Positions 11,412-22,406 of a stretch of 39,193 bases of DNA are shown here, in pieces. How positions within the stretch are numbered: position 1 is the stretch's first letter; each line of letters opens with the position of its first letter. This DNA comes from Promethearchaeota archaeon (GTDB taxonomy: Archaea; Asgardarchaeota; Lokiarchaeia; Sigyniarchaeales; SOKP01): positions 1 to 39,193 of the forward strand of contig JAHPZI010000016.1 in assembly GCA_019058295.1 (NCBI GenBank), given 5' to 3'. Position numbers and translations under genes: made by a program. The notes under the pieces are model-generated. The model searched no databases and was not told the origin of the DNA. It saw only the letters and a list, made by a program, of their open reading frames with translations.

Positions 11412-11702
11412 TTAAGTCTTATTCTTATCCTTCTTTTTATCAAATTCGAATGACTCAAATAAATCAAGATTTAGTTTTTTCGCTAAATCAAATCCCGTAT
11501 CAAAAATTAATTTCACTGATTGATAAAATAAATCTCCTAATACATTATCTACCTTGGAATCGCTATCATCATTAAGTTCCGAAAACATCTTTTTCATTTC
11601 GGAGGGATTTAATTGATCTCTGGTTTTTTCTTCAATTTTCTTATTCATTTCCACTACATCAACTTGAGTTCCATTCAAATTCGAATTATTTTTATTTTCC
11701 AT
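11412..11702 (-). CDS. Small hypothetical protein, co-transcribed with the PlsC-like gene
   Basis: GGAGG RBS, 96-aa ORF. Confidence 0.7.
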   Translation of the reverse strand: MENKNNSNLNGTQVDVVEMNKKIEEKTRDQLNPSEMKKMFSELNDDSDSKVDNVLGDLFYQSVKLIFDTGFDLAKKLNLDLFESFEFDKKKDKNKT

Positions 11703-11735: not shown

Positions 11736-12449
11736 TTATTGTATTTCATTATCATTTTCATCTTCATATTCAGGTATTATTCGGAGGTTATCAATAATAT
11801 TCAGCAATTCTTCAGCTAGTTCGTATCTCTCTGTTCGGTATTTTTCTCTAGTTAATTTACTTGATACACTAATTGGATTGCCAACTTTGACTCTTAATCC
11901 TGGAATTGGAATTAAATTTAATAATTTTGTCTCTTCAGTATGAATTGCTAATGGAATTATTGGAGATTTTCCTGCAACTGCAAATTTAATAATTCCTGCC
12001 ATAGATTTGACTTGAATATCTCGTTCCAATTTAGCCTCTGGAGTCATAGCAACAAGATCACCTTTCTCGTTTAATATTTTAAAAACATTATCGATTGGTT
12101 CCATATCTTCCTTATCTTTGGTGCCCCTAATCATTCCAATTGTTTTAAGAAGTTGACCTGCAATTGGATATGCCATTATTTTAGGATGGAGCATGAAATG
12201 TACTTTGCGTCCAGTTAATTGGCTTATTACTAACATGTCGCGAAAAACATTTTTTGATATAGTAGTTAAAATCGCTTTTCCTATTATAGGAATATTTTCT
12301 GCGCCTTCTACTTTTAAATCTGCTATTCCTTTTAATGCTATGCCACCAACCCCTTTTATAGCACTGTAAAGAAGATCTCCCACAAGCGCTTTTGTATCTA
12401 ACTTAGGCTTTTCTTCTTCTTTTTCCAGAATAACTTCATGTTCAACCAT
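11736..12449 (-). CDS. PlsC-like acyltransferase fold, catalytic His absent
   Basis: VEGAENIP, MTPEA (for FPEG), PIIPLAI, VKVGNPI; HxxxxD replaced by ISKNVFRD. Confidence 0.75.
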   Translation of the reverse strand: MVEHEVILEKEEEKPKLDTKALVGDLLYSAIKGVGGIALKGIADLKVEGAENIPIIGKAILTTISKNVFRDMLVISQLTGRKVHFMLHPKIMAYPIAGQLLKTIGMIRGTKDKEDMEPIDNVFKILNEKGDLVAMTPEAKLERDIQVKSMAGIIKFAVAGKSPIIPLAIHTEETKLLNLIPIPGLRVKVGNPISVSSKLTREKYRTERYELAEELLNIIDNLRIIPEYEDENDNEIQ

Positions 12450-12479: not shown

Positions 12480-12674
12480 TTAAAGTTTGTATATAAACTC
12501 ATTAACCTCTTCCATTCTATTTTCATAATACTCTTTAAGATCCTTCTCAGAAACGAAAGAAGGTATAACCTTTTCTGTAAAAATATCAAATATTGTGGAT
12601 AATTTTGACCTATGTTTTATAGTCTCGTAAAATTCCTTTCCTAAACTCCTTAAATCTTCTAAAAATTTTGACAT
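12480..12674 (-). CDS. Small hypothetical protein
   Basis: 64-aa ORF directly upstream of the PlsC-like gene. Confidence 0.6.
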   Translation of the reverse strand: MSKFLEDLRSLGKEFYETIKHRSKLSTIFDIFTEKVIPSFVSEKDLKEYYENRMEEVNEFIYKL

Positions 12675-12929: not shown

Positions 12930-13478
12930 TTAGAAGTTTTCTTCATCCGAAATTATTACCGCACCAATTGTGCCTAAAATCCCTGCTGTTAGCGCAATAT
13001 AGAAGCCAGGACCTAAACCCCATATAAACATAGCATAATAATACTCATCACCAATGGCACTACTAGTACTTCTGCCCCCGAAAAGAATTCCTCTTTCCAT
13101 AAAATATTTTAATTCGTCTGGATCAGCCATTGGCGAAAATAATGCTGCCAGAAATAATATAGGGCCCATAATTATAAAAATACCACCTACTATCCCAAGA
13201 ATCTTATTTGTTCTCATAATACCAACTAATAAGAGTAATGAACCAATCAAAGTTGAAAATCCTGCAATTATCCCGATTGGTCCTAAAATTTGGTGATTAT
13301 ATTCGTCAGTATAAACAGCTCCGAATGCGTTCAGACGGGTCCCACCAAAAAGCATATTCAAACCTCTCCCAAGAAGACCCAAGGAAAACCACCAAGAACC
13401 GTATAATGGGGAAATATAATATAAAAAAATACTTAAGAACCCAAAAAAGCATCCAAATTTAGCTAGTGTATGTTCCAT
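12930..13478 (-). CDS. Four-TM membrane protein (claudin/PMP22-like topology)
   Basis: 4 hydrophobic helices; WGLGPGFYIA before the last TM. Confidence 0.65.
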   Translation of the reverse strand: MEHTLAKFGCFFGFLSIFLYYISPLYGSWWFSLGLLGRGLNMLFGGTRLNAFGAVYTDEYNHQILGPIGIIAGFSTLIGSLLLLVGIMRTNKILGIVGGIFIIMGPILFLAALFSPMADPDELKYFMERGILFGGRSTSSAIGDEYYYAMFIWGLGPGFYIALTAGILGTIGAVIISDEENF

Positions 13479-13647
13479 GATTTTATCTCTTAGTTTAGTA
13501 AATTATAGACAATATAATCAAATTTAAATTTTTCTTTATTTGCCTAATTTAGAAAGTTCTCTCCCTTTTTATGAATATATTATAAGTTATTTAAAAATAA
13601 ATGAAACATTAATAATTATAAAAAATGAGTAATAGATTTGTTATATA

Positions 13648-13884
13648 ATGACAAACACGTCCATTAATTCACATGTTGCGGTCTTAGATATTAAAGCATG
13701 CTTAGGCTGTGGAAAATGTATTGATATATGTCCGACAGACGCAATTCCTCCACTTTTAGGACTCTATTCGAGATTACTCGAAATAGATAAAATTAAATGT
13801 AATGGATGTGGTGAATGTGTTCCCATTTGTCCTCATAATGCAATAAACTTAGTAGAATTATCTAAAACAAAAAATCAAATTTAA
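13648..13884 (+). CDS. 2x[4Fe-4S] ferredoxin
   Basis: CLGCGKCIDICP and CNGCGECVPICP. Confidence 0.92.
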   Translation: MTNTSINSHVAVLDIKACLGCGKCIDICPTDAIPPLLGLYSRLLEIDKIKCNGCGECVPICPHNAINLVELSKTKNQI

Positions 13885-13930
13885 GATTTTTTAGTTAAAA
13901 TGAGCTGATTTTAGAGTTTTTTTGAGAAAT

Positions 13931-13943
13931 AAAAAAAAAAAAA
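13931..13943 (-). terminator. Poly-T archaeal-type terminator
   Basis: T13 on the minus strand 7 nt after the stop of 13951-14820, between convergent genes. Confidence 0.5.
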
Positions 13944-13950
13944 GAATTAT

Positions 13951-14820
13951 CTAATTATCAAATGGATCTGCTAAAGGTCCTGAAATTCCAATTTTTTCAG
14001 CAATTTTTAATATATACTTTTTTCTATGGTTGTGCGTTATATCTAAGAGTATTAGAGCTGGAAAAGATAGAATTGTGATACCTATTGGTAATGTCGGATA
14101 AAATACAATGAACATAATACTCATACCTTGAACTCCTTTCGCAATTTCCATAACTTCAAACATATACCAGAAAAAAGCATAAAAAGAGAGAATAACTGAA
14201 ATCCCAGCATAACCTTTCAATAGATAATTATACCAACCGCCTACACTCCTAACTTCAGTTGGTTGAGCTAAATCTTTTACTTTTTCTTTGTTAGTATAAA
14301 CAATACCAGCATCTAGCAAAAACCACACTGATGAAAATATTCCCATAGATATACCCGTCATTAAAGCTAATAATGCAAGAAGAGTTACCATAGCAACTTG
14401 TTCATTATCTGAGCTATTTACAGCAATTCTCTGCACCCATGAAGTAAATGCAAACATTAAAGCAAAATTTATCGCCATTAATGCAGGAAACAACCCCTTT
14501 AAAAAGTATTTTTTGAATTTTTCTGGTTTTTCTTTATCTTGTACCCCGTAAATCATTTTCCGTCCGATTATCTTTTTATGGGCATAGAGATATAATGGAC
14601 CTAAAGCGTATCCAACGAAAACTCCTCCAATAATAGCACAAATAGTTATCATAATAAACATATATACGATATCATGGGCTGCGTTATTGGTTGGAGAAAA
14701 TCTGATCCAGTTTCGACCTACTGCCTCCGGATTATTACCTACAATAATCACTAAAACAAGTAAAATTAAATTTAAAATTATATATATCAATAGTGGTTTC
14801 ATATATTTTTTAACAGTCAT
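13951..14820 (-). CDS. Hypothetical polytopic membrane protein
   Basis: About 6 TM; WFLLDAGIVY, VGGWYNYLLKGYAG. Confidence 0.75.
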   Translation of the reverse strand: MTVKKYMKPLLIYIILNLILLVLVIIVGNNPEAVGRNWIRFSPTNNAAHDIVYMFIMITICAIIGGVFVGYALGPLYLYAHKKIIGRKMIYGVQDKEKPEKFKKYFLKGLFPALMAINFALMFAFTSWVQRIAVNSSDNEQVAMVTLLALLALMTGISMGIFSSVWFLLDAGIVYTNKEKVKDLAQPTEVRSVGGWYNYLLKGYAGISVILSFYAFFWYMFEVMEIAKGVQGMSIMFIVFYPTLPIGITILSFPALILLDITHNHRKKYILKIAEKIGISGPLADPFDN

Positions 14821-14959: not shown

Positions 14960-15988
14960 TTAAAAAACCTCCCATTTTCCACAGCGACTTCCCCATCGAG
15001 CTATCACCTTATCCTCCTCATCTGGCATTTTAACTTGAATAATTTCACAATTATTGGGACAATCACCGCAGTTAAAGGCTGACGTGACAAATTCAATTTC
15101 TGCAACTTCAAATCCCCTAAATACAGTTTCAGTTTCATGATTAAGGTAATGATCTCTCACTAGAATTGCCATACCTATTGCCCCCATTAAAACGTTATGC
15201 TTAGGGACAACCACTTTAACACCAAGGTGTCTTTCAAAAGCTTGTACAATCCCTGCATTAAAAGATACACCGCCTTGAAAAACAATTGGAGACTCTAAAT
15301 CTTTTCCCTTGGATAAATTATTCAAATAGTTGCGAACCAATGAATCGCATAAACCAGCGATAATATCTTCACGGGAATATCCCGCATTTTGCTTATGAAT
15401 CATATCAGATTCAGCAAATACAGTACATCTCCCGGCTATTGAAACTGGATTTGTTGATTTTATAGCATAACTTCCAAATTCCTCAATAGGGATTTCAAGC
15501 CTTGAAGCTTGATGATCAAGGAAAGAACCAGTCCCAGCTGCGCAGACAGAATTCATCGCAAAATCAATTATGATTCCATCTCTGAGGAGGATCATCTTCG
15601 AGTCTTGCCCTCCAATCTCCAATATTGTTCTCACATCAGGATATTCAGATTGTGCGCCTACTGCATGTGCTATAATCTCTGTCTTAGCAAGATCTCCGCC
15701 AACAACTGCTTTAGTTAAATATCTAGCGGAACCAGTAGTACCACAAGCCCGTATTGCATACCCTTGCAATTCTCCACTTTCCTCTACTTGCTTTCTTAAT
15801 TGTGCCATTCCATCTTTAACAGAGTCGATAGGTGACCCCTTATTTCTTAAGAACACGCTTGTAAGTACATTCCCATCTGTGTCTATTAGAACAAATTTTA
15901 AACTTACACTTCCCACATCTATACCTAGGAAAGCGTCTTTTTTACTATCACTCGAAATAGTCTTATCTGAAACTTGTACCATTTTCAT
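14960..15988 (-). CDS. CoA-substrate-specific enzyme activase (BcrAD/BadFG/HgdC ASKHA ATPase) with C-terminal Cys motif
   Basis: LGIDVGSVSLK, TEIIAH, EIGGQDSK, MNSVCAAGTGSFLD, RCTVFAESD, FQGGV, CGDCPNNC...RC. Confidence 0.92.
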   Translation of the reverse strand: MKMVQVSDKTISSDSKKDAFLGIDVGSVSLKFVLIDTDGNVLTSVFLRNKGSPIDSVKDGMAQLRKQVEESGELQGYAIRACGTTGSARYLTKAVVGGDLAKTEIIAHAVGAQSEYPDVRTILEIGGQDSKMILLRDGIIIDFAMNSVCAAGTGSFLDHQASRLEIPIEEFGSYAIKSTNPVSIAGRCTVFAESDMIHKQNAGYSREDIIAGLCDSLVRNYLNNLSKGKDLESPIVFQGGVSFNAGIVQAFERHLGVKVVVPKHNVLMGAIGMAILVRDHYLNHETETVFRGFEVAEIEFVTSAFNCGDCPNNCEIIQVKMPDEEDKVIARWGSRCGKWEVF

Positions 15989-15995
15989 TTAACCT

Positions 15996-17183
15996 CTATT
16001 TTGTCTGAACAAATTGAACACATTCATTATAAAAATTATTTCCGTAATGATCATAAGCGATTTTTTTATATGCATCTATTGAAATTTTTTGATCCTCAAT
16101 TTTTTTATCTCGTCTAGCGTGCAGTAAGTCCACAAAAGCTTCCAGTCTCGTACGGAAGCCTTCAGAACCACTCTGCTCGTCAAATGAGAAATAAATTACA
16201 GGTAAATCATATATCTTTTGGAGGTGATTTGTAATAATTGTTCGGGCAGTAACCTCAGGCATGCAGGTGAAAGGATATTGATGCACAAATCCATCAAATC
16301 CGGCTGTAGCTGTATCAATATATTCCCCAATCACCCATACCGCTTCTCCCCCAATATCCATAGGTAAATGAGGACGTGCAAGATGCTCAAGCCACTTCCT
16401 GTGGTAATTGAGATGGAATTTATGAACAATCCAATCATATAAAGAAATGCTTTGATTAATTAATACACCCATTTCCCCTAATTTCCGTCTAATATCGAGA
16501 TTAACGTAAGGTTCTAAACTGATATGGATCTCTCCTGAAATTCCTACTCTTAAGGGATTGCGAGTCTTATCAATATCCATATTATTAAATGTATCTTTTA
16601 TAACGTTGCGGAATGCACGCAATCCTTGAATTGTATTAGTTTCGTCCAGTTGTTTTACTAATTTATTAACTACTCTAGTAGTATCTCCTTGATTTCGCTC
16701 ATAAGCCCGAAAAATTCCTTCTGCAGTTTGAATATCTTCAAGGTGTTTAGCTTTTTTCAGGAAAAACCTGACAGCTTTTAGAGCTTTTGTATACAACGTC
16801 AATCTGTTGGAAGGACCAATCTTGAATATGAGTCTGAGCCACCGGAACGATAGTAAATCAGCTTGGTCAAGAGGAATTAGTCTAAAGTTTTTATACCCCA
16901 TTTCTTTTAAAAGCCGCTCCTGAACGCTGGCATAAAATCCGAAACGGCAGGGTCCGCAATCAATGGCCATAATTAGGGTATCTGCTCCCTTGTCAAGTGC
17001 GTTTTTGAGATCTCCGAGTGTTGCTTTAAAAGGAAAGCAAACAAATTCGGGACTGTATTTTACGCCTATTTTTATTGCTTCTCGATTAGTAGGGTCAGGT
17101 AAAACTACATCTACACCCATACATTCAACTAATGTTTTGAAAGCTACCCGACTAAGACCCATATTTGGAAATGAAGCTAGCAT
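15996..17183 (-). CDS. 2-hydroxyacyl-CoA dehydratase/PlsR-like reductase subunit
   Basis: CFPFK, CGPCRFGFY, GEI, PFTCMPE, FDEQSGSEGFRTRLEAF. Confidence 0.82.
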   Translation of the reverse strand: MLASFPNMGLSRVAFKTLVECMGVDVVLPDPTNREAIKIGVKYSPEFVCFPFKATLGDLKNALDKGADTLIMAIDCGPCRFGFYASVQERLLKEMGYKNFRLIPLDQADLLSFRWLRLIFKIGPSNRLTLYTKALKAVRFFLKKAKHLEDIQTAEGIFRAYERNQGDTTRVVNKLVKQLDETNTIQGLRAFRNVIKDTFNNMDIDKTRNPLRVGISGEIHISLEPYVNLDIRRKLGEMGVLINQSISLYDWIVHKFHLNYHRKWLEHLARPHLPMDIGGEAVWVIGEYIDTATAGFDGFVHQYPFTCMPEVTARTIITNHLQKIYDLPVIYFSFDEQSGSEGFRTRLEAFVDLLHARRDKKIEDQKISIDAYKKIAYDHYGNNFYNECVQFVQTK

Positions 17184-17200
17184 ATTAAACTTTATACCTC

Positions 17201-18232
17201 CTATGATACTTTTATCGTTGATTTAATCTTTTGCTTTGATGCAGCTCTTTGTTTTTGTTTCTTCCTTTTAATCATATCGGTAAAACTTTCTATTCGAGTG
17301 AGCAGCCCTGCGTCTCCACTGTGCTCGTCTATTATAATTGCGAGATAAGGAATTCCGACAGCTTTCATATCATGCATTATTAATTCTGAGATAAGGCTAT
17401 CAGGACCACAAGCGAAGCTTATGAGGAAGATTACCCCATCAATTTCATTACGCCCTTTAGTTAAAAAATATCTAATTGCCTGCATAATTTCTTCTTCATG
17501 TCTCCAATAGTTCAAAAGTTTCTTGTTGACAATAACTTGTTCCTTAAAAATATGCTCGGGCAAATTTTCAATCGTGATAACCTCAACATCTTGATCGTTC
17601 AATTTTTTTGCGAAATCTAAATTTACATAAGTATCAAAGAGATTATAAGCATGTCCTAATAATAGGAATTTAATAGAACCCTTACTTTTTCTTTTTGGCA
17701 CTTTGAAAGAGACGTCTCTTAACACTAGCCTTAAAGCATGAATGACAGAAACTCCTTTCCTTAAAAATTCTAAATACTCATCGTAATATTTTTGGGCTTT
17801 TTTATATGCCTCTAAGGAAGCTGATTGACTTTTACCTAATTGCTTACCAAGTTCTATTACTGCTGTGGCAATCGGAAATTCTTTCACATTTACTTCAAAA
17901 TTTAATAATCTTGGGCAATTTGGCAGAATTTTAATAACATCCGGGAGAGATATCCATTTTGGACACCAGTAGGATTCCTTTAATTCAGAAACATATCTCG
18001 GAACGAATAGAAAGTCTAAATCAGGATGTTCCTCTACTAATTGGAGCGCATGGCCGTAATAAACTTTCACAGGTAGACATAGTTCTCCAAATCCATGCAT
18101 TACTCCTACTTCTACTAATTTTTTATTAGTTGGTGAACTAAGGATTATTTCGACATTCAATTCATCAAATAATTTTTTCCAAAAAGGGAAGAATTTGTAA
18201 TAGTGGAGTGCTCTAGGAATACCAACTTTCAT
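17201..18232 (-). CDS. DUF2229 acyl-CoA dehydratase activase-related subunit
   Basis: KVGIPRAL, LCLPVKVYYGH, CPK, GHAYN, SFACGPD, DEHSGDAGLLTRIESF. Confidence 0.85.
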   Translation of the reverse strand: MKVGIPRALHYYKFFPFWKKLFDELNVEIILSSPTNKKLVEVGVMHGFGELCLPVKVYYGHALQLVEEHPDLDFLFVPRYVSELKESYWCPKWISLPDVIKILPNCPRLLNFEVNVKEFPIATAVIELGKQLGKSQSASLEAYKKAQKYYDEYLEFLRKGVSVIHALRLVLRDVSFKVPKRKSKGSIKFLLLGHAYNLFDTYVNLDFAKKLNDQDVEVITIENLPEHIFKEQVIVNKKLLNYWRHEEEIMQAIRYFLTKGRNEIDGVIFLISFACGPDSLISELIMHDMKAVGIPYLAIIIDEHSGDAGLLTRIESFTDMIKRKKQKQRAASKQKIKSTIKVS

Positions 18233-18235
18233 TTT

Positions 18236-19891
18236 TTAAACATTAGGGTTATTATAAAACATTAAATCCTTAATTCTTTCCATCAAGATATTAGTTAATC
18301 TTCTAAGCTCGTCATATTTTGGCATTGGTTTATCGAAATACTGTGAATGCTCCATAAAAGGTTCTCCAGCCTTCATTATACATCCTTTTCCAAAATTGAG
18401 CATTTTTGCATGTTTTGGATATATATTTTCAGTACCAGTTACTCCAACGGGTATAATAGGTACTTTTGTCTCGATAGCCAAGCGAACTGCTCCTGCATGG
18501 CCTTCTAATAAATCACCCCCTCCTAGATTGGTTGTTCCCTCAGGATAAACAACAACAAGCTGACCCTCTTCTAATCGATCTTTGCCAGTATTGTACGAGC
18601 TTATATCATGTTCTCCTCTTCTTAATGGAAATGCGTGATGTGTTCTTACCCAAGCGTTTACGATTGGTATTTTGAATAAAGATTCTTTTGCCATTTGATA
18701 TAATTGTCTACCTCCATTTTGCCATATGGCTAAAGGAAGCATTAATACATCCCATTCTGAGTTATGGCCACACGCAATAAGCGCTCCACCTTCTTGAGGT
18801 ATATGTTTATCAAAATCTATGACTTTAATAGGATTAATTAAATCAGTATAAGCAGTTAATAAAACACCTGTTAAGCCATATATTGGCTTTGTAAATGCGT
18901 CTCGTGCTCCGATCATATCTAAGGTTTTAAGAAGTGCATACCAAAAATCGTCGACACTCCATAAAATATGATGTTGTATATTTTTAAGGATTCCTTTAAA
19001 TCCACTTGATTTAGGTTTATCTTCCATATCTTTAGGATATCCAATCGATAATTCTTTTGCTTCCTCGTCATCGCCTTCATATAATTTAATTAAAACCTCT
19101 CGTAATTCATCAGTTAATCTTCTAATGTCAGGATAAGATGGTTCCTTCCCATAATAATCATCATAATAAATTGGTTCTCCGCACCGACAAGTTACTTTAG
19201 TTGGTTTCATTACTAACTTGCCTTTTGGAAGTGCATTGCGAGATCCTAAAACTACGAATGGTACTATTGGTACACCCATTTCAATTGCAAGTCTAACAGC
19301 TCCAGTACGAAATTCTCCCATTTCTCCGTTCTCAGCTCGAGTTCCTTCAGGGAATATGCCTACATACTCTCCATTTTTAAGTAATTCCCTCGCTTTATTA
19401 GTCCCCTCATCTGGATTATCACGATCAAGCTCGAAAGCACCTAAATTTTTGAAAAGAGTAGTTACTATGGGCGTTTTAAAATTTTCTTTTTTAGACATCC
19501 ATCTAATTGGTCTATGGACTGCTCCCCCAACAAAGAATGGATCTAAATGGGAATTATGATTTGATACTATTACCGCACCACCATGCTCAGGAGGTATTGG
19601 ACCCTCTACTCTATAGTTCCAAAAAAGACGCATCGCTGATTTACACCAAAAAGCATAAGCAAGCCACCATTGGAATTCATCAACTTCATCTTGTATTGTG
19701 AACTTTTCGCAGATAGAACGTAATATGTTATTTATATAATCAATAGGATTATGTTTTAATATTTTATATAGGGCTTTTTCATGAGGTTTCTCATATTCAA
19801 GTTCTTTATCTTTCTCTTCAATTTCGAATTTTACTTTTTCTTTTTTTATTTGTTTTTCTGATTCTTTTAAATCAATTTTAGGAATTTCCAT
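18236..19891 (-). CDS. plsC: Tandem double-domain lysophospholipid acyltransferase (PlsC family)
   Basis: Domain 1 SNHNSHLD...FPEGTR; domain 2 GHNSEWD...YPEGTT; both have GAVRLAIE..VPI.P. Confidence 0.9.
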   Translation of the reverse strand: MEIPKIDLKESEKQIKKEKVKFEIEEKDKELEYEKPHEKALYKILKHNPIDYINNILRSICEKFTIQDEVDEFQWWLAYAFWCKSAMRLFWNYRVEGPIPPEHGGAVIVSNHNSHLDPFFVGGAVHRPIRWMSKKENFKTPIVTTLFKNLGAFELDRDNPDEGTNKARELLKNGEYVGIFPEGTRAENGEMGEFRTGAVRLAIEMGVPIVPFVVLGSRNALPKGKLVMKPTKVTCRCGEPIYYDDYYGKEPSYPDIRRLTDELREVLIKLYEGDDEEAKELSIGYPKDMEDKPKSSGFKGILKNIQHHILWSVDDFWYALLKTLDMIGARDAFTKPIYGLTGVLLTAYTDLINPIKVIDFDKHIPQEGGALIACGHNSEWDVLMLPLAIWQNGGRQLYQMAKESLFKIPIVNAWVRTHHAFPLRRGEHDISSYNTGKDRLEEGQLVVVYPEGTTNLGGGDLLEGHAGAVRLAIETKVPIIPVGVTGTENIYPKHAKMLNFGKGCIMKAGEPFMEHSQYFDKPMPKYDELRRLTNILMERIKDLMFYNNPNV

Positions 19892-19909
19892 TTATCATAA
19901 CCTCTTATT

Positions 19910-20701
19910 TTAAGATTTCATTTTTAATGATGTTTGAACATTAGAATTTGAAATACGACCATTTTTAATACCAATGAGCTCTAATAATTCTGTTATTGAA
20001 TTAACCAATAAATCTGGCTGGAAATCAGCTAAGACTTCTTTTTTACTAATCCCGCTTGCTATACCTACGGTACACAATCCTGCTTCTTTACCCGCTTCAA
20101 TATCAGTTGGCATATCTCCAAATAATAACCACTCTGATCCTTTAATTTTTTTATACTTCTCTAAAACAGGGAGAAACGCGTCTGGGTGTGGTTTTAGAGC
20201 TGGAAGTTTATCGGCCCCATAAACTTCTTCAAAATATTTTTCAAGACCCTCCTTTTCTATTGATTCTATAACACTTCTTGTTTGATTGTGAGATACAATA
20301 AAAAGAACACACTCTTTTTTAAGAAAAGAAATTAGTTCTTTTGAGCCAGGAAATATCGATGCTTCTTTTGAATATTCCTGGTATTTTCCAAAGATTTTCA
20401 TTGCAATACGCAATTTTTTGAGATATCTTAAATGGCTCAAACTAGATATGGCCTTGAAAATTTCATATGATTGTAGTAGTATTTTAGGTATAGGATATCC
20501 TTGGATTGATTCCAATGTAGTTCCGATTTCTTGTATTGTAAGGTCCATGTCTGCTTGGATGTTCTTTTCAGTATAAACCTCTTCAATTGATCTTTTTAGT
20601 GGATCCATAACATCCAACAGTGTGCCATCAAAATCAAAAATTACACCACGAAACGCGCGTTCTCGTAATTTTTTAATTATTTTTTGGTCATTCATTTTCA
20701 A
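19910..20701 (-). CDS. HAD-superfamily phosphatase
   Basis: IFDFDGTL, KPHP, GDMPTDIEAG; start may be ATG 20695. Confidence 0.9.
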   Translation of the reverse strand: MKMNDQKIIKKLRERAFRGVIFDFDGTLLDVMDPLKRSIEEVYTEKNIQADMDLTIQEIGTTLESIQGYPIPKILLQSYEIFKAISSLSHLRYLKKLRIAMKIFGKYQEYSKEASIFPGSKELISFLKKECVLFIVSHNQTRSVIESIEKEGLEKYFEEVYGADKLPALKPHPDAFLPVLEKYKKIKGSEWLLFGDMPTDIEAGKEAGLCTVGIASGISKKEVLADFQPDLLVNSITELLELIGIKNGRISNSNVQTSLKMKS

Positions 20702-20987: not shown

Positions 20988-22406
20988 ATAATAACAAATG
21001 AGTCAAAATTTTCTATAAATCGTCACTTTTGGTCATTGTTCCTCTTGGGTGGTTTTCAAAGTTTAGCTTTTGGAGGATTAATTGTTCTTGTTGTACCATT
21101 ATCATTTATAATATGGCCCAATGATCCATATCATGCGCTAGATATGGGAATTTTGATTACTGTATTATTTTGGGTATCGGCAGCGGCAGGGATTTTTTTT
21201 GGATTCTATATCGATAAATTTAGAAGAACTAAGATAATTTTTGCAATTTCGATTTTTAGAGGAATTAGTATGTTCTTGATTGGATTTGTGGATGAGGGAA
21301 AAGGTATGGAAACATGGTGGTATTTTTTATTATATATCATCATTTTTGCCTTTTTTACAGGAGGGTCCTGGCCTTCTATTGTTTCTCTCTCAAACGATAT
21401 CGTTCCAAAAGATTATCGTTCCCGATTTTTTGGAATAATGGGGATTATAATGGGGTCCTTTACTACATTTGGGTTTTTAATAGCTTCTGCTTTTGTTCAA
21501 TATGGATATTGGAGGCTTTATTTCTGGTGGATTGGGTTATCAATTCTCGTTGCTGGTTTTATATTTTTTATTCACATTAAAGAGCCAAAAAGAGGGAGCC
21601 AAGAAGAACAACTTAATGAGCTTCTTAAAGATGATTCCATTGAATATGATTTCCAAATTGATCTTGAAACGATGAAAAAAACCATGTTAAGTAAAACTAA
21701 TATTGTTGCGCTAATTGAAGGTATTTCATCGAATATTCTAATGGGTAGTCTATATTTACTAGTTTTACCTTTCATACAAACTGAACCCCATAACCTTTCT
21801 CCCGTTTTTACCGGTCTTTTTTTAATTGTATTTGGTTTTACTGGGGGATTTATTGGGCAATTATTTCTTGCTAGATTCTCGGATAAAGTTGCTAAAACCC
21901 ATCCCATTAGTAGAATCTATTTTATAATTATAGCTCTTAGTGTAAGTGTTATTGCTTTTGTTCTTCTGTTTTTTATTCCATTGCCACATTTAACAATAGA
22001 ACAAGGTCGGGATATTCCATATTTATTCTCGATACCAATGATATGGATCTGGGGGGCGTTATTTTTTACTTCTAGCATAATATCTTCACTATATATGGTT
22101 AATCAAGCTCCTCTTCTCCAAGATATAAACCTTCCTGAAGCCCAAGGGAAAATTACTTCCTGGAATCAACTTGTAGAAAATATCGGTTTTGGCGCAGGAC
22201 CTTTGATTGTCGGAATTATTTTAACTGTGACTAGTTTAGATTATCAATTAACCGTTGTAGTAGTTTCTCTTTTAATAATTCCAGGAATACTGTTGTGGTT
22301 TTTAGCTTTAAGATGGTATGGTGAAGATAAGAATGCAATTAAAAAAATTTTAGATGAGCGAGCTGAAATTTTAAGAAAAAACAAATCTACTCAATTGTCC
22401 CCATAG
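20988..22406 (+). CDS. MFS transporter
   Basis: 12 TM, GFYIDKFRR motif A; frame extends upstream of TTG 21036 to an ATA at 20988 preceded by AAAAGGTG. Confidence 0.88.
   Translation: MITNESKFSINRHFWSLFLLGGFQSLAFGGLIVLVVPLSFIIWPNDPYHALDMGILITVLFWVSAAAGIFFGFYIDKFRRTKIIFAISIFRGISMFLIGFVDEGKGMETWWYFLLYIIIFAFFTGGSWPSIVSLSNDIVPKDYRSRFFGIMGIIMGSFTTFGFLIASAFVQYGYWRLYFWWIGLSILVAGFIFFIHIKEPKRGSQEEQLNELLKDDSIEYDFQIDLETMKKTMLSKTNIVALIEGISSNILMGSLYLLVLPFIQTEPHNLSPVFTGLFLIVFGFTGGFIGQLFLARFSDKVAKTHPISRIYFIIIALSVSVIAFVLLFFIPLPHLTIEQGRDIPYLFSIPMIWIWGALFFTSSIISSLYMVNQAPLLQDINLPEAQGKITSWNQLVENIGFGAGPLIVGIILTVTSLDYQLTVVVVSLLIIPGILLWFLALRWYGEDKNAIKKILDERAEILRKNKSTQLSP

Follow-up and report, generated by a model that had tools for sequence, protein, structure and literature searches.

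A conserved gene cluster of Lokiarchaeia joins PlsC acyltransferases to a putative split enzyme of the PlsA/Ger family, a candidate route to non-isoprenoid ether lipids

The closest described relatives of the enzyme considered here are PlsA/PlsR and Ger. PlsA/PlsR, which is encoded by two genes in Clostridium perfringens (CPE1194/1195) and by a single gene in Enterococcus, Lactococcus, and Bifidobacterium, uses oxygen-sensitive chemistry of the BCR/HAD type and contains two activase units, Red1, and Red2, arranged as Act1-Act2-Red1 plus Red2 (PMC12838417). Ger, from Thermotoga maritima (Tmari_0479) and Desulfatibacillum alkenivorans (SHJ90043), consists of a pair of activase domains followed by DUF2229 and by small DUF2229 and HGD-D pieces in alternation (BBDHDDH; PMC13159169). 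Here, we describe an operon in a stretch of 39,193 nucleotides (contig JAHPZI010000016.1 of assembly GCA_019058295.1, positions 1 to 39,193; hereafter the window) from a Promethearchaeota archaeon of the Lokiarchaeia, in which PlsC acyltransferase genes stand beside three genes for what would be a split enzyme of this family. Our preferred reading, which we hold tentatively and at a little less than an even chance, is that the operon is a self-contained acyl-lipid module of Lokiarchaeia, in which acylation would be followed by ATP-driven conversion of an ester to an ether. The operon gives a candidate route to non-isoprenoid ether lipids that is testable but unproven.

How eukaryotes, whose membranes have fatty-acyl lipids, arose from a host with isoprenoid ether lipids of the archaeal kind has long been a problem, and the lipids of Asgard archaea were still listed as open in a 2026 review (PMC12993045). 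The existence of PlsC homologues in Lokiarchaeota, on which a preliminary description of this DNA had drawn, is published, as is that of PlsY homologues (PMC6737245). Ger homologues have been reported in Lokiarchaeota (including Ca. Prometheoarchaeum) and Heimdallarchaeota, in a search that accepted matches with E ≤ 1e-50 if they covered 30% or more of the 1400-aa Ger (PMC13159169). A 343-aa subunit falls below 30% coverage of Ger, and the split system is therefore probably not what that survey reported. Our literature searches (DUF2229; Asgard with PlsC; plasmalogen with Asgard) found no paper on the operonic coupling or on a split clade.

The preliminary description had listed five co-oriented genes, and five minus-strand open reading frames are indeed present, with gaps of exactly 18, 3, 17, and 7 nt calculated from their coordinates. 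In order, they encode a HAD-IA family phosphatase, a tandem PlsC acyltransferase, two catalytic subunits that we call DUFa and DUFb, and an ASKHA activase (Act; Table 1). All five genes are real, but the unit is longer than had been described, reaching a 64-aa gene, a pseudo-PlsC gene, and a 96-aa gene. We compared 47 related loci by tblastn and iterated profile searches, with labels beginning with f for families, g for genera, and L for loci; the family of the window is f1, with genera g1-g8. The order HAD, PlsC-PlsC, DUFa, DUFb, Act, 64-aa protein, 237-aa PlsC-fold protein, small acidic protein is kept in f1, and the operon is presumably co-transcribed. Genes around the operon were annotated over the flanking ~10 kb. 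The genome of the window (3.2 Mb) is 79% complete, and what is absent from it is reported below as not found.

DUFa, DUFb, and the activase matched the modules of BBD proteins, which have 1330-1425 aa and a Ger/PlsA-type architecture and occur mainly in Deltaproteobacteria/Thermodesulfobacteriota. First, DUFa aligned with BBD Red1 modules over 92-99% of its length, with 27-33% identity and E values down to 3e-37; its best fused relatives (1380-1420 aa, Deltaproteobacteria/Thermodesulfobacteriota) share a phylum-level group with D. alkenivorans. Second, DUFb aligned as Red2 to residues 1026-1404 of the BBD protein P0284 (E = 3e-21, 22% identity). Third, the activase aligned with the second activase module of P0284 (42% identity, E = 6e-82), including the tail, where residues 307-336 match residues 624-652 of P0284 (CxxCxNxCEI...GGRC, also in the BBD consensus). 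This one-to-one correspondence with Red1, Red2, and Act2 indicates that the window encodes a split version of the BBD machine. The claim of the preliminary description that these are the domains of PlsA/PlsR and Ger thus held, module for module with Act-Act-Red1-Red2, within the DUF2229 branch of the BCR/HAD superfamily. The domain set is that of Ger. As in PlsA/PlsR-type enzymes, a Cys-rich tail follows the activase unit that adjoins Red1, each Red module has three invariant cysteines, and the chemistry is predicted to be of the same BCR/HAD type. Unlike PlsA/PlsR, the system of the window is divided among three separate genes and has one activase gene instead of two fused units; its low Red1 and Red2 identities to PlsA/PlsR-type fused forms, given above, were obtained by way of the BBD proteins.

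The DUFa sequence matched PF09989 (DUF2229) at positions 1-217 of 218, and its match to HGD-D (PF06050) was confined to positions 281-342 of 342, the C-terminal tail of ~60 positions. DUFb had a weak DUF2229 match and the same HGD-D tail, and its 1617 homologues were ~360-aa standalone proteins or C-terminal halves of 700-770-aa fusions. These bacterial DUFa-DUFb fusions, which are followed by an activase, support a DUFa-DUFb heterodimer, which we regard as the probable form of the enzyme. Cys52, Cys90, and Cys275 are invariant in DUFa and in the Red1 modules of BBD proteins, Cys49, Cys79, and Cys307 are invariant in DUFb (124 sequences), and the CxP, GPCRFG, and PFTCMP motifs of DUFb are common to the BBD consensus. 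Three invariant cysteines per subunit correspond to the pattern of the three-Cys [4Fe-4S] sites of 2-hydroxyacyl-CoA dehydratases, by analogy with which DUFa and DUFb would each carry a [4Fe-4S] cluster. The closest homologues of DUFa came from metagenome-assembled genomes (MAGs) named Promethearchaeota, Lokiarchaeota, Thorarchaeota, Hermodarchaeota, or Hodarchaeota, and within the family DUFa is 65-92% identical across genera, indicating strong purifying selection.

In the activase, which matched TIGR00241 at 193 bits as well as PF01869 (Table 1), the bridging-cluster cysteines Cys149 and Cys188 were invariant in 37 sequences. The C-terminal CxxCxxxC...C motif that the preliminary description had pointed out is present as C307-x2-C310-x3-C314...C336. 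Solved activases of 243-276 aa (HadI 4eht, HgdC 1hux, MbdQ 9gai, and DCCP-R 7yyl) cover only residues 20-281, and the 60-residue tail has no counterpart in them.

Sequence searches of the PDB gave little for the catalytic subunits: only the last 60 residues of DUFa resembled HadC (3o3m_B, E = 0.001), and DUFb had no significant match. No structure of PlsA or Ger is available there. AlphaFold2 models of DUFa (pLDDT 92.4, 51 homologues) and DUFb (pLDDT 93.9, 124 homologues) were more informative. All of their top 20 Foldseek matches in the PDB were catalytic subunits of HadBC, DCCP, BzdNO, or MbdON, with E values of 3e-10 to 1e-6 and TM scores of 0.50-0.57. The top folds for DUFa were HadBC 3o3m/3o3n, DCCP 7yyl, BzdNO 8s02, and MbdON 9g87; those for DUFb were DCCP, HadBC, and BzdNO. 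The system thus resembles 2-hydroxyacyl-CoA dehydratases (HadBC/HadI, HgdAB/HgdC) and class I benzoyl-CoA reductases (BzdNOPQ, MbdONPQ) in subunit fold, and it shares with them an ASKHA activator, with a predicted bridging [4Fe-4S] cluster, and a predicted ATP-driven ketyl-radical logic. Unlike these enzymes, to which it has 10-15% identity, its N-terminal two thirds match DUF2229 rather than HGD-D. The best structural matches of the DUFb model were to the DCCP/DCCP-R system (PDB 6eno, 7yyl), likewise an ATP-dependent reductase made of two components. DCCP is a homodimer with an [8Fe-9S] cluster held by six cysteines, whereas the window encodes two different subunits with three invariant cysteines each, which scored 15.6 bits against NF040772 (cut-off 350).

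These resemblances bear directly on the main alternative, in which the radical enzyme acts before PlsC, on an acyl-CoA thioester, and the modified acyl donor ends up in an ester lipid rather than an ether. The folds and three-Cys sites match those of HadBC and BzdNO, which are CoA-thioester enzymes; PlsC enzymes take acyl-CoA or acyl-ACP donors; and to our knowledge all other characterised BCR/HAD enzymes act on acyl-CoA thioesters, either dehydrating 2-hydroxyacyl-CoA or reducing unsaturated or aromatic acyl-CoA. However, there was no full-length PF06050 match and no dehydratase or benzoyl-CoA reductase equivalog match: NCBIfam equivalogs scored 15-17 bits against cut-offs of 350-700, and the HadC equivalog scored 17.5 bits against 700. 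Grouping with true 2-hydroxyacyl-CoA dehydratases, a possibility that the preliminary description had raised, was therefore not observed. Moreover, the only characterised DUF2229-type enzymes that we know of act on glycerolipid O-esters, and the activase has the Cys tail of BBD proteins, not the short HgdC/HadI form. The genomic surroundings also differ from those of dehydratases: the neighbours are HAD, PlsC, MFS, and membrane-protein genes, and annotation of the operon and the flanking ~10 kb gave no gene for a CoA-transferase, a 2-hydroxyacid dehydrogenase, or an acyl-CoA ligase. Taking both sides together, we consider action on acyl-CoA unlikely, although it is the rival that deserves most weight.

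A quick IQ-TREE analysis of Red1 (75 rows, SH-aLRT support), made without verified PlsA, PlsR, or Ger sequences, separated three well-supported groups. A PlsC-linked Asgard clade of 31 rows had support of 99, as did a BBD clade containing both bacterial 1400-aa proteins and Asgard PlsA-like proteins, to which the bacterial DUFa-DUFb fusions attached weakly (support 82), and a clade of Asgard standalone paralogues without PlsC. That the PlsC-linked clade is not nested in the BBD (PlsA/Ger-type) clade favours the acyl-CoA alternative. With respect to phylogeny, the kinship suggested in the preliminary description was borne out in part: the subunits are not true dehydratases, but the PlsC-linked clade lies apart from the BBD clade on this tree, and orthology to PlsA or Ger is only a possibility.

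The linkage to plsC, noticed in the preliminary description for this one locus, is conserved. PlsC was present in 25 of the 26 loci of the clade, in five arrangements. In f1 (20 loci), HAD and a fused PlsC-PlsC precede DUFa, DUFb, and Act; f2, including a 4.36-Mb single-contig genome, has PlsC, PlsC, DUFa, DUFb, Act; L053 has PlsC, PlsC, DUFa, DUFb; L055 and L056 have PlsC, DUFa, Act, DUFb; and f3 and f4 (L061, L062) have a triple PlsC (872-876 aa), a 490-aa HAD protein, DUFa, DUFb, and Act. The sole locus without PlsC is L063, where PadR and DUFa are immediate neighbours; in its relative L064, PlsC stands between the two. In at least four families and two further MAG lineages, the linkage thus persists although genes have been fused, split, or reordered. 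By contrast, no PlsC gene was found within ~8 kb of other Asgard DUFa paralogues (0 of 16 loci). In a sample of the phylum, DUFa orthologues occurred in 60 of the 68 other genomes of the family.

Tight spacing is common in compact archaeal genomes, and adjacency could in principle be fortuitous, with the acyltransferases and the iron-sulfur enzyme serving unrelated pathways. But the linkage survives rearrangement and is specific to the clade (25/26 against 0/16 loci), and because of this conserved synteny we treat chance adjacency as excluded, leaving it a very small residual probability. The neighbours of the Asgard paralogues without PlsC have no common theme (DegV, aminotransferase, disulfide oxidoreductases, H+-PPase, NosD-like). 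Their mixed character, and in particular the aminotransferase, disulfide oxidoreductase, and DegV genes, suggests diverse substrates and is a further point in favour of the acyl-CoA alternative.

Two side observations concern these loci. In two f2 genera, a gene for a 2TM-domain protein and a PadR-family regulator gene precede the PlsC/DUFa operon (L064:10237-11571, L063:1927-3192), and the PadR-family protein is a candidate local regulator of it. A gene for a fatty-acid-binding protein, DegV (L069:6981-7937), immediately precedes, in the same orientation, a DUFa-DUFb-Act set of the Asgard clade that lacks PlsC.

Table 1. Coordinates of the operon genes and neighbouring genes in the window, followed by a gene pair inserted in related loci (coordinates of the locus named)
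Feature	Position	Strand	Remarks
HAD-IA family phosphatase	19910-20701	-	263 aa as ORF (open reading frame); Pfam HAD_2 E 1e-26
Tandem PlsC/LPLAT acyltransferase	18236-19891	-	551 aa; two PF01553 domains, E 1e-61
DUFa, Red1-like Fe-S (iron-sulfur) putative catalytic subunit	17201-18232	-	343 aa; DUF2229 E 9e-43
DUFb, Red2-like Fe-S putative catalytic subunit	15996-17183	-	395 aa; weak DUF2229 and HGD-D matches
ASKHA activase (Act)	14960-15988	-	342 aa; BcrAD_BadFG (PF01869) E 1e-46
Two multi-TM (multi-transmembrane) genes	12930-14820 (289 aa, 13951-14820; 182 aa, 12930-13478)	-	no family except weak DUF4064
Conserved 64-aa protein	12480-12674	-	no Pfam family
Pseudo-PlsC (putative pseudo-acyltransferase)	11736-12449	-	237 aa; PF01553 E 1e-8
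Small acidic protein	11412-11702	-	96 aa; partly conserved 3' of pseudo-PlsC
MFS transporter, divergent upstream neighbour	21036-22406	+	456 aa; Pfam MFS_1 E 3e-36
PlsA-like and PlsR-like pair	L038:10419-14804; also L042, L045, L047		genera g2, g5

Some g2 and g5 genomes carry, between DUFa and DUFb, genes for a PlsA-like protein (974-985 aa, Act-Act-DUF2229) and a PlsR-like protein (466-474 aa) outside any Pfam family; plsA-plsR of C. perfringens has this two-gene layout (Table 1), and the presence of such a pair inside the locus favours our preferred reading. Other g2 and g5 genomes have a paralogous DUFa', Act', DUFb' set in the same place, and some have both insertions; in loci with insertions, DUFb and Act lie 12 kb downstream or on the next contig. 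As a separate observation, DUFa' is fused to an N-terminal VAO-type FAD_binding_4 domain in L047:400-3941 and L044:4207-9001 (812-837 aa), and the fused protein groups inside the PlsC-linked clade of the Red1 tree. We rejected alkyl-DHAP synthase as the identity of this FAD domain, as the AGPS match had an E value of only 5e-4 to 0.025; it is closest to VAO flavoproteins of the cytokinin dehydrogenase, EncM, DprE1, and GlcD type. Selenocysteine in the fused paralogues, suggested by single TGA flags, was likewise dropped: the flags are most simply terminal stop codons; nothing interrupts the reading frame of L047, and the match that was flagged begins 3 nt past its end.

Both domains of the tandem PlsC have intact HX4D and PEGT motifs (NHNSHLD/FPEGT and GHNSEWD/YPEGT), as in bacterial PlsC, and HX4D is kept in 21 of 24 and 24 of 26 orthologues of the two domains. 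The protein scored 177 bits on TIGR00530, a generic lysophosphatidic acid acyltransferase (LPAAT) domain model, and its single sequence match in the PDB was T. maritima PlsC (5kym, E = 6e-19). Downstream, the 237-aa protein retains a match to the PF01553 fold family but has ISKNVFRD in place of HX4D and MTPEA in place of PEG; neither motif was present in any of its 10 orthologues. Its loss of catalytic motifs marks it as a conserved, predicted catalytically dead pseudo-acyltransferase. It is kept 3' of the activase in eight loci of genera g1, g3, g4, g5, and g8, and a domain of the same type forms the third domain of the fused triple PlsC of f3 and f4. Unlike bacterial PlsC, the system combines two catalytic domains in a single chain with a dedicated pseudo-domain; neither PlsY nor PlsX was found as a partner, and the host is an archaeon with a normal GGGPS. 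The only PF01553 matches in the genome of the window are the two tandem domains and the pseudo-domain, and PlsY was not found in it. Because all three PF01553 domains sit in the window and PlsY was not found, the acyltransferases appear to be dedicated to the operon.

The HAD protein has the expected motifs, with FDFDGT as the DxDGT nucleophile, the Lys of KPHP, and GDMPTD as GDxxxD. It matched HAD_2 over positions 1-177 of 178 and Hydrolase at E = 6e-22, and all of its NCBIfam matches (phosphoglycolate phosphatase, PpaX, and others) fell below their cut-offs. Translation more likely starts at the ATG at 20695, two codons inside the TTG-started open reading frame, as alignments with orthologues begin at residues 3-5. 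The gene has the same place in the operon throughout f1 and lies between the triple PlsC and DUFa in f3 and f4; its membership, which the preliminary description had assumed, therefore stood for f1, f3, and f4 and failed for other lineages, which lack it. One f3 genome has, between its triple PlsC and HAD genes, a gene of the LarA family (L061:10580-11962) whose product resembles lactate racemase and has Lar_N and LarA_C domains; the f4 locus L062 lacks this gene. Racemisation or epimerisation at a 2-hydroxy group of a glycerol-phosphate-like backbone is a conceivable role for the product. In one g3 genome, HAD and the tandem PlsC are separated by a gene for a B12-binding radical SAM protein that is read in the opposite direction (L041:5386-6849).

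PlsC homologues also serve other acceptors; those of the OlsA type, for example, acylate for ornithine lipids. The acceptor could accordingly be an amino-lipid, a sugar, a polyamine, or another small molecule, whose acylated form the radical enzyme would go on to modify; the product would be a specialised metabolite unrelated to membrane ether lipids. PF01553 does include non-glycerolipid acyltransferases, and we saw weak OlsA and OlsF matches; the PlsC motifs diverge in f3 and f4 (HX4E, FPQQT); and HAD-IA phosphatases mostly take small phosphorylated metabolites. Nevertheless, the best matches of the acyltransferase were LPAAT models and T. maritima PlsC, the OlsA matches reached only 35-39 bits against a cut-off of 300, and no genes that activate amino acids or sugars are conserved in the operon. 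We therefore judge a non-glycerolipid acceptor quite unlikely.

Upstream of HAD, the divergent MFS gene is loosely conserved beside the operon in genera g1, g2, and g5, with orthologues in L033, L034, L038, L039, and L040; the MFS query had no match in the f2, f3, and f4 loci, L053, or L055. Its membership in the system is uncertain. In LplT-Aas systems, LplT imports lysolipids and Aas re-acylates them. A similar arrangement here, in which the MFS protein would import lysolipids (from bacterial partners or sediment), PlsC would re-acylate them, and the radical enzyme might alter their esters, would make the operon one for lipid salvage or remodelling. An MFS gene does recur as a neighbour, the PlsC domains scored on the Aas-type model PRK08633 (E = 1e-34), and the bacterial-type de novo pathway looks incomplete, with neither PlsY nor a clear glycerol-3-phosphate dehydrogenase found in the genome. 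But the MFS protein gives a generic MFS_1 match with marginal likeness to LplT, and we rejected it as an LplT orthologue (only E = 0.0015 to the LplT-Aas fusion model NF005291). Its distance from the operon varies by kilobases, and it goes unmatched in the lineages just named. Unlike LplT-Aas, the operon has no acyl-ACP synthetase domain; PRK08633 scored only 119 bits against a cut-off of 1221, and TIGR00530 scored higher. Finally, in a genome of this completeness, missing genes are weak evidence. On balance, salvage is an improbable explanation.

Our preferred reading, acylation followed by conversion of ester to ether, starts from what was computed (gene order, intact motifs, folds, invariant cysteines, modular colinearity with BBD proteins, and clade-specific PlsC linkage) and takes its chemistry from PlsA/PlsR and Ger, by analogy with which we infer a lipid substrate, an ether product, and the order acylation, dephosphorylation, reduction. 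The PlsC domains would put acyl chains from acyl-CoA onto an acceptor of the glycerol-phosphate type. ATP hydrolysis by the activase, which presumably forms a homodimer with a bridging [4Fe-4S] cluster on Cys149 and Cys188, would push a low-potential electron into the DUFa-DUFb heterodimer. With a three-Cys [4Fe-4S] cluster in each subunit, one of the two clusters would generate a ketyl radical on the ester carbonyl of the new acyl lipid, and reduction and dehydration would then yield an alk-1-enyl (plasmalogen-type) or alkyl ether, as in PlsA/PlsR and Ger. Sequence cannot tell a saturated alkyl ether, the Ger product, from a vinyl ether, the PlsA product. The HAD phosphatase might dephosphorylate a phosphatidate-like intermediate or a head-group precursor.

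A fuller proposal, possible in our view but doubtful, is that Lokiarchaeia use the operon to make fatty-acid-derived, non-isoprenoid glycerolipids of the ether or plasmalogen type, perhaps on a glycerol-1-phosphate backbone, with an enzyme that is a sister lineage of PlsA/Ger. The archaeal glycerol-1-phosphate backbone is possible because bacterial PlsC accepts both stereoforms of glycerol phosphate (PMC13400652).

Several observations weigh against an ether-lipid product. First, the resemblance to the fused proteins is distant: identity to the BBD modules is 22-33%, and the B-B-D fusion, which every confirmed producer of alkyl ethers carries (PMC13159169), is replaced here by three separate genes. 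On the Red1 tree, the PlsC-linked clade fell outside the BBD clade, and the order in which the three clades branch was not recovered. Second, a scan of genome contigs with a BBD alignment gave 80 bacterial loci, all from MAGs except that of Ca. Brocadia pituitae and none from an enzyme-verified species, and in only two of them (L090, L146) did the BBD gene adjoin plsC; unlike these bacterial genes, the operon of the window includes acyltransferases. The coupling is therefore without precedent among the characterised enzymes and cannot be argued from bacteria. Third, the substrate specificity of the HAD protein is not assignable from NCBIfam, and the search for a source of glycerol-3-phosphate in the genome gave only weak Rossmann-fold matches to GpsA. 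GGGPS of the normal archaeal ether pathway is present elsewhere in the genome. Finally, a lipid analysis of a cultured Lokiarchaeon found archaeal lipids only, although the method may have missed others (PMC13400652), and plasmalogens have been stated to be absent from archaea (PMC13012113).

If the fuller proposal is true, the operon would give archaea, and specifically the closest archaeal relatives of eukaryotes, their first pathway to acyl-derived ether lipids, and it would contradict the stated absence of plasmalogens (PMC13012113). What had been a scattered presence of genes becomes a defined putative pathway of six to eight genes, in which PlsC and a PlsA/Ger-type enzyme are joined in one conserved, transcription-unit-like block that holds all acyltransferase domains found in the genome. 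The split clade also adds to the range of architectures known for PlsA/Ger-family enzymes. The bearing on eukaryogenesis put forward in the preliminary description is weakened, as eukaryotic plasmalogen synthesis reportedly derives from myxobacteria and follows an unrelated aerobic route (PMC13012113, 2026). Given that origin, the operon would not be its ancestor.

No other DUF2229 match was found in the window's own genome. The remaining genes of the block differ in their conservation. In relatives, the 64-aa gene lies directly 3' of the activase gene; its product has 59-89% identity in eight loci, each time encoded between the activase and the pseudo-PlsC. The 96-aa protein has 56-60% identity in L034 and L039 and is more weakly conserved in L040, L044, and L048. 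The two multi-TM genes, inserted after the activase so that they split the operon, occur in the window's genome only: tblastn of 20 related loci gave no match, and Pfam/NCBIfam searches returned no family except the weak DUF4064 match, which belongs to the 182-aa protein.

Two further observations concern the bacterial BBD genes. In L090:831-5763, the BBD gene is preceded on its own strand by a gene for a 251-aa PlsC, with 14 nt between the two. Full-length BBD (PlsA/Ger-type) genes also occur in Ca. Brocadia pituitae and a Ca. Scalindua MAG (L099, L109), both anammox bacteria, a group known for ether-linked ladderane lipids.

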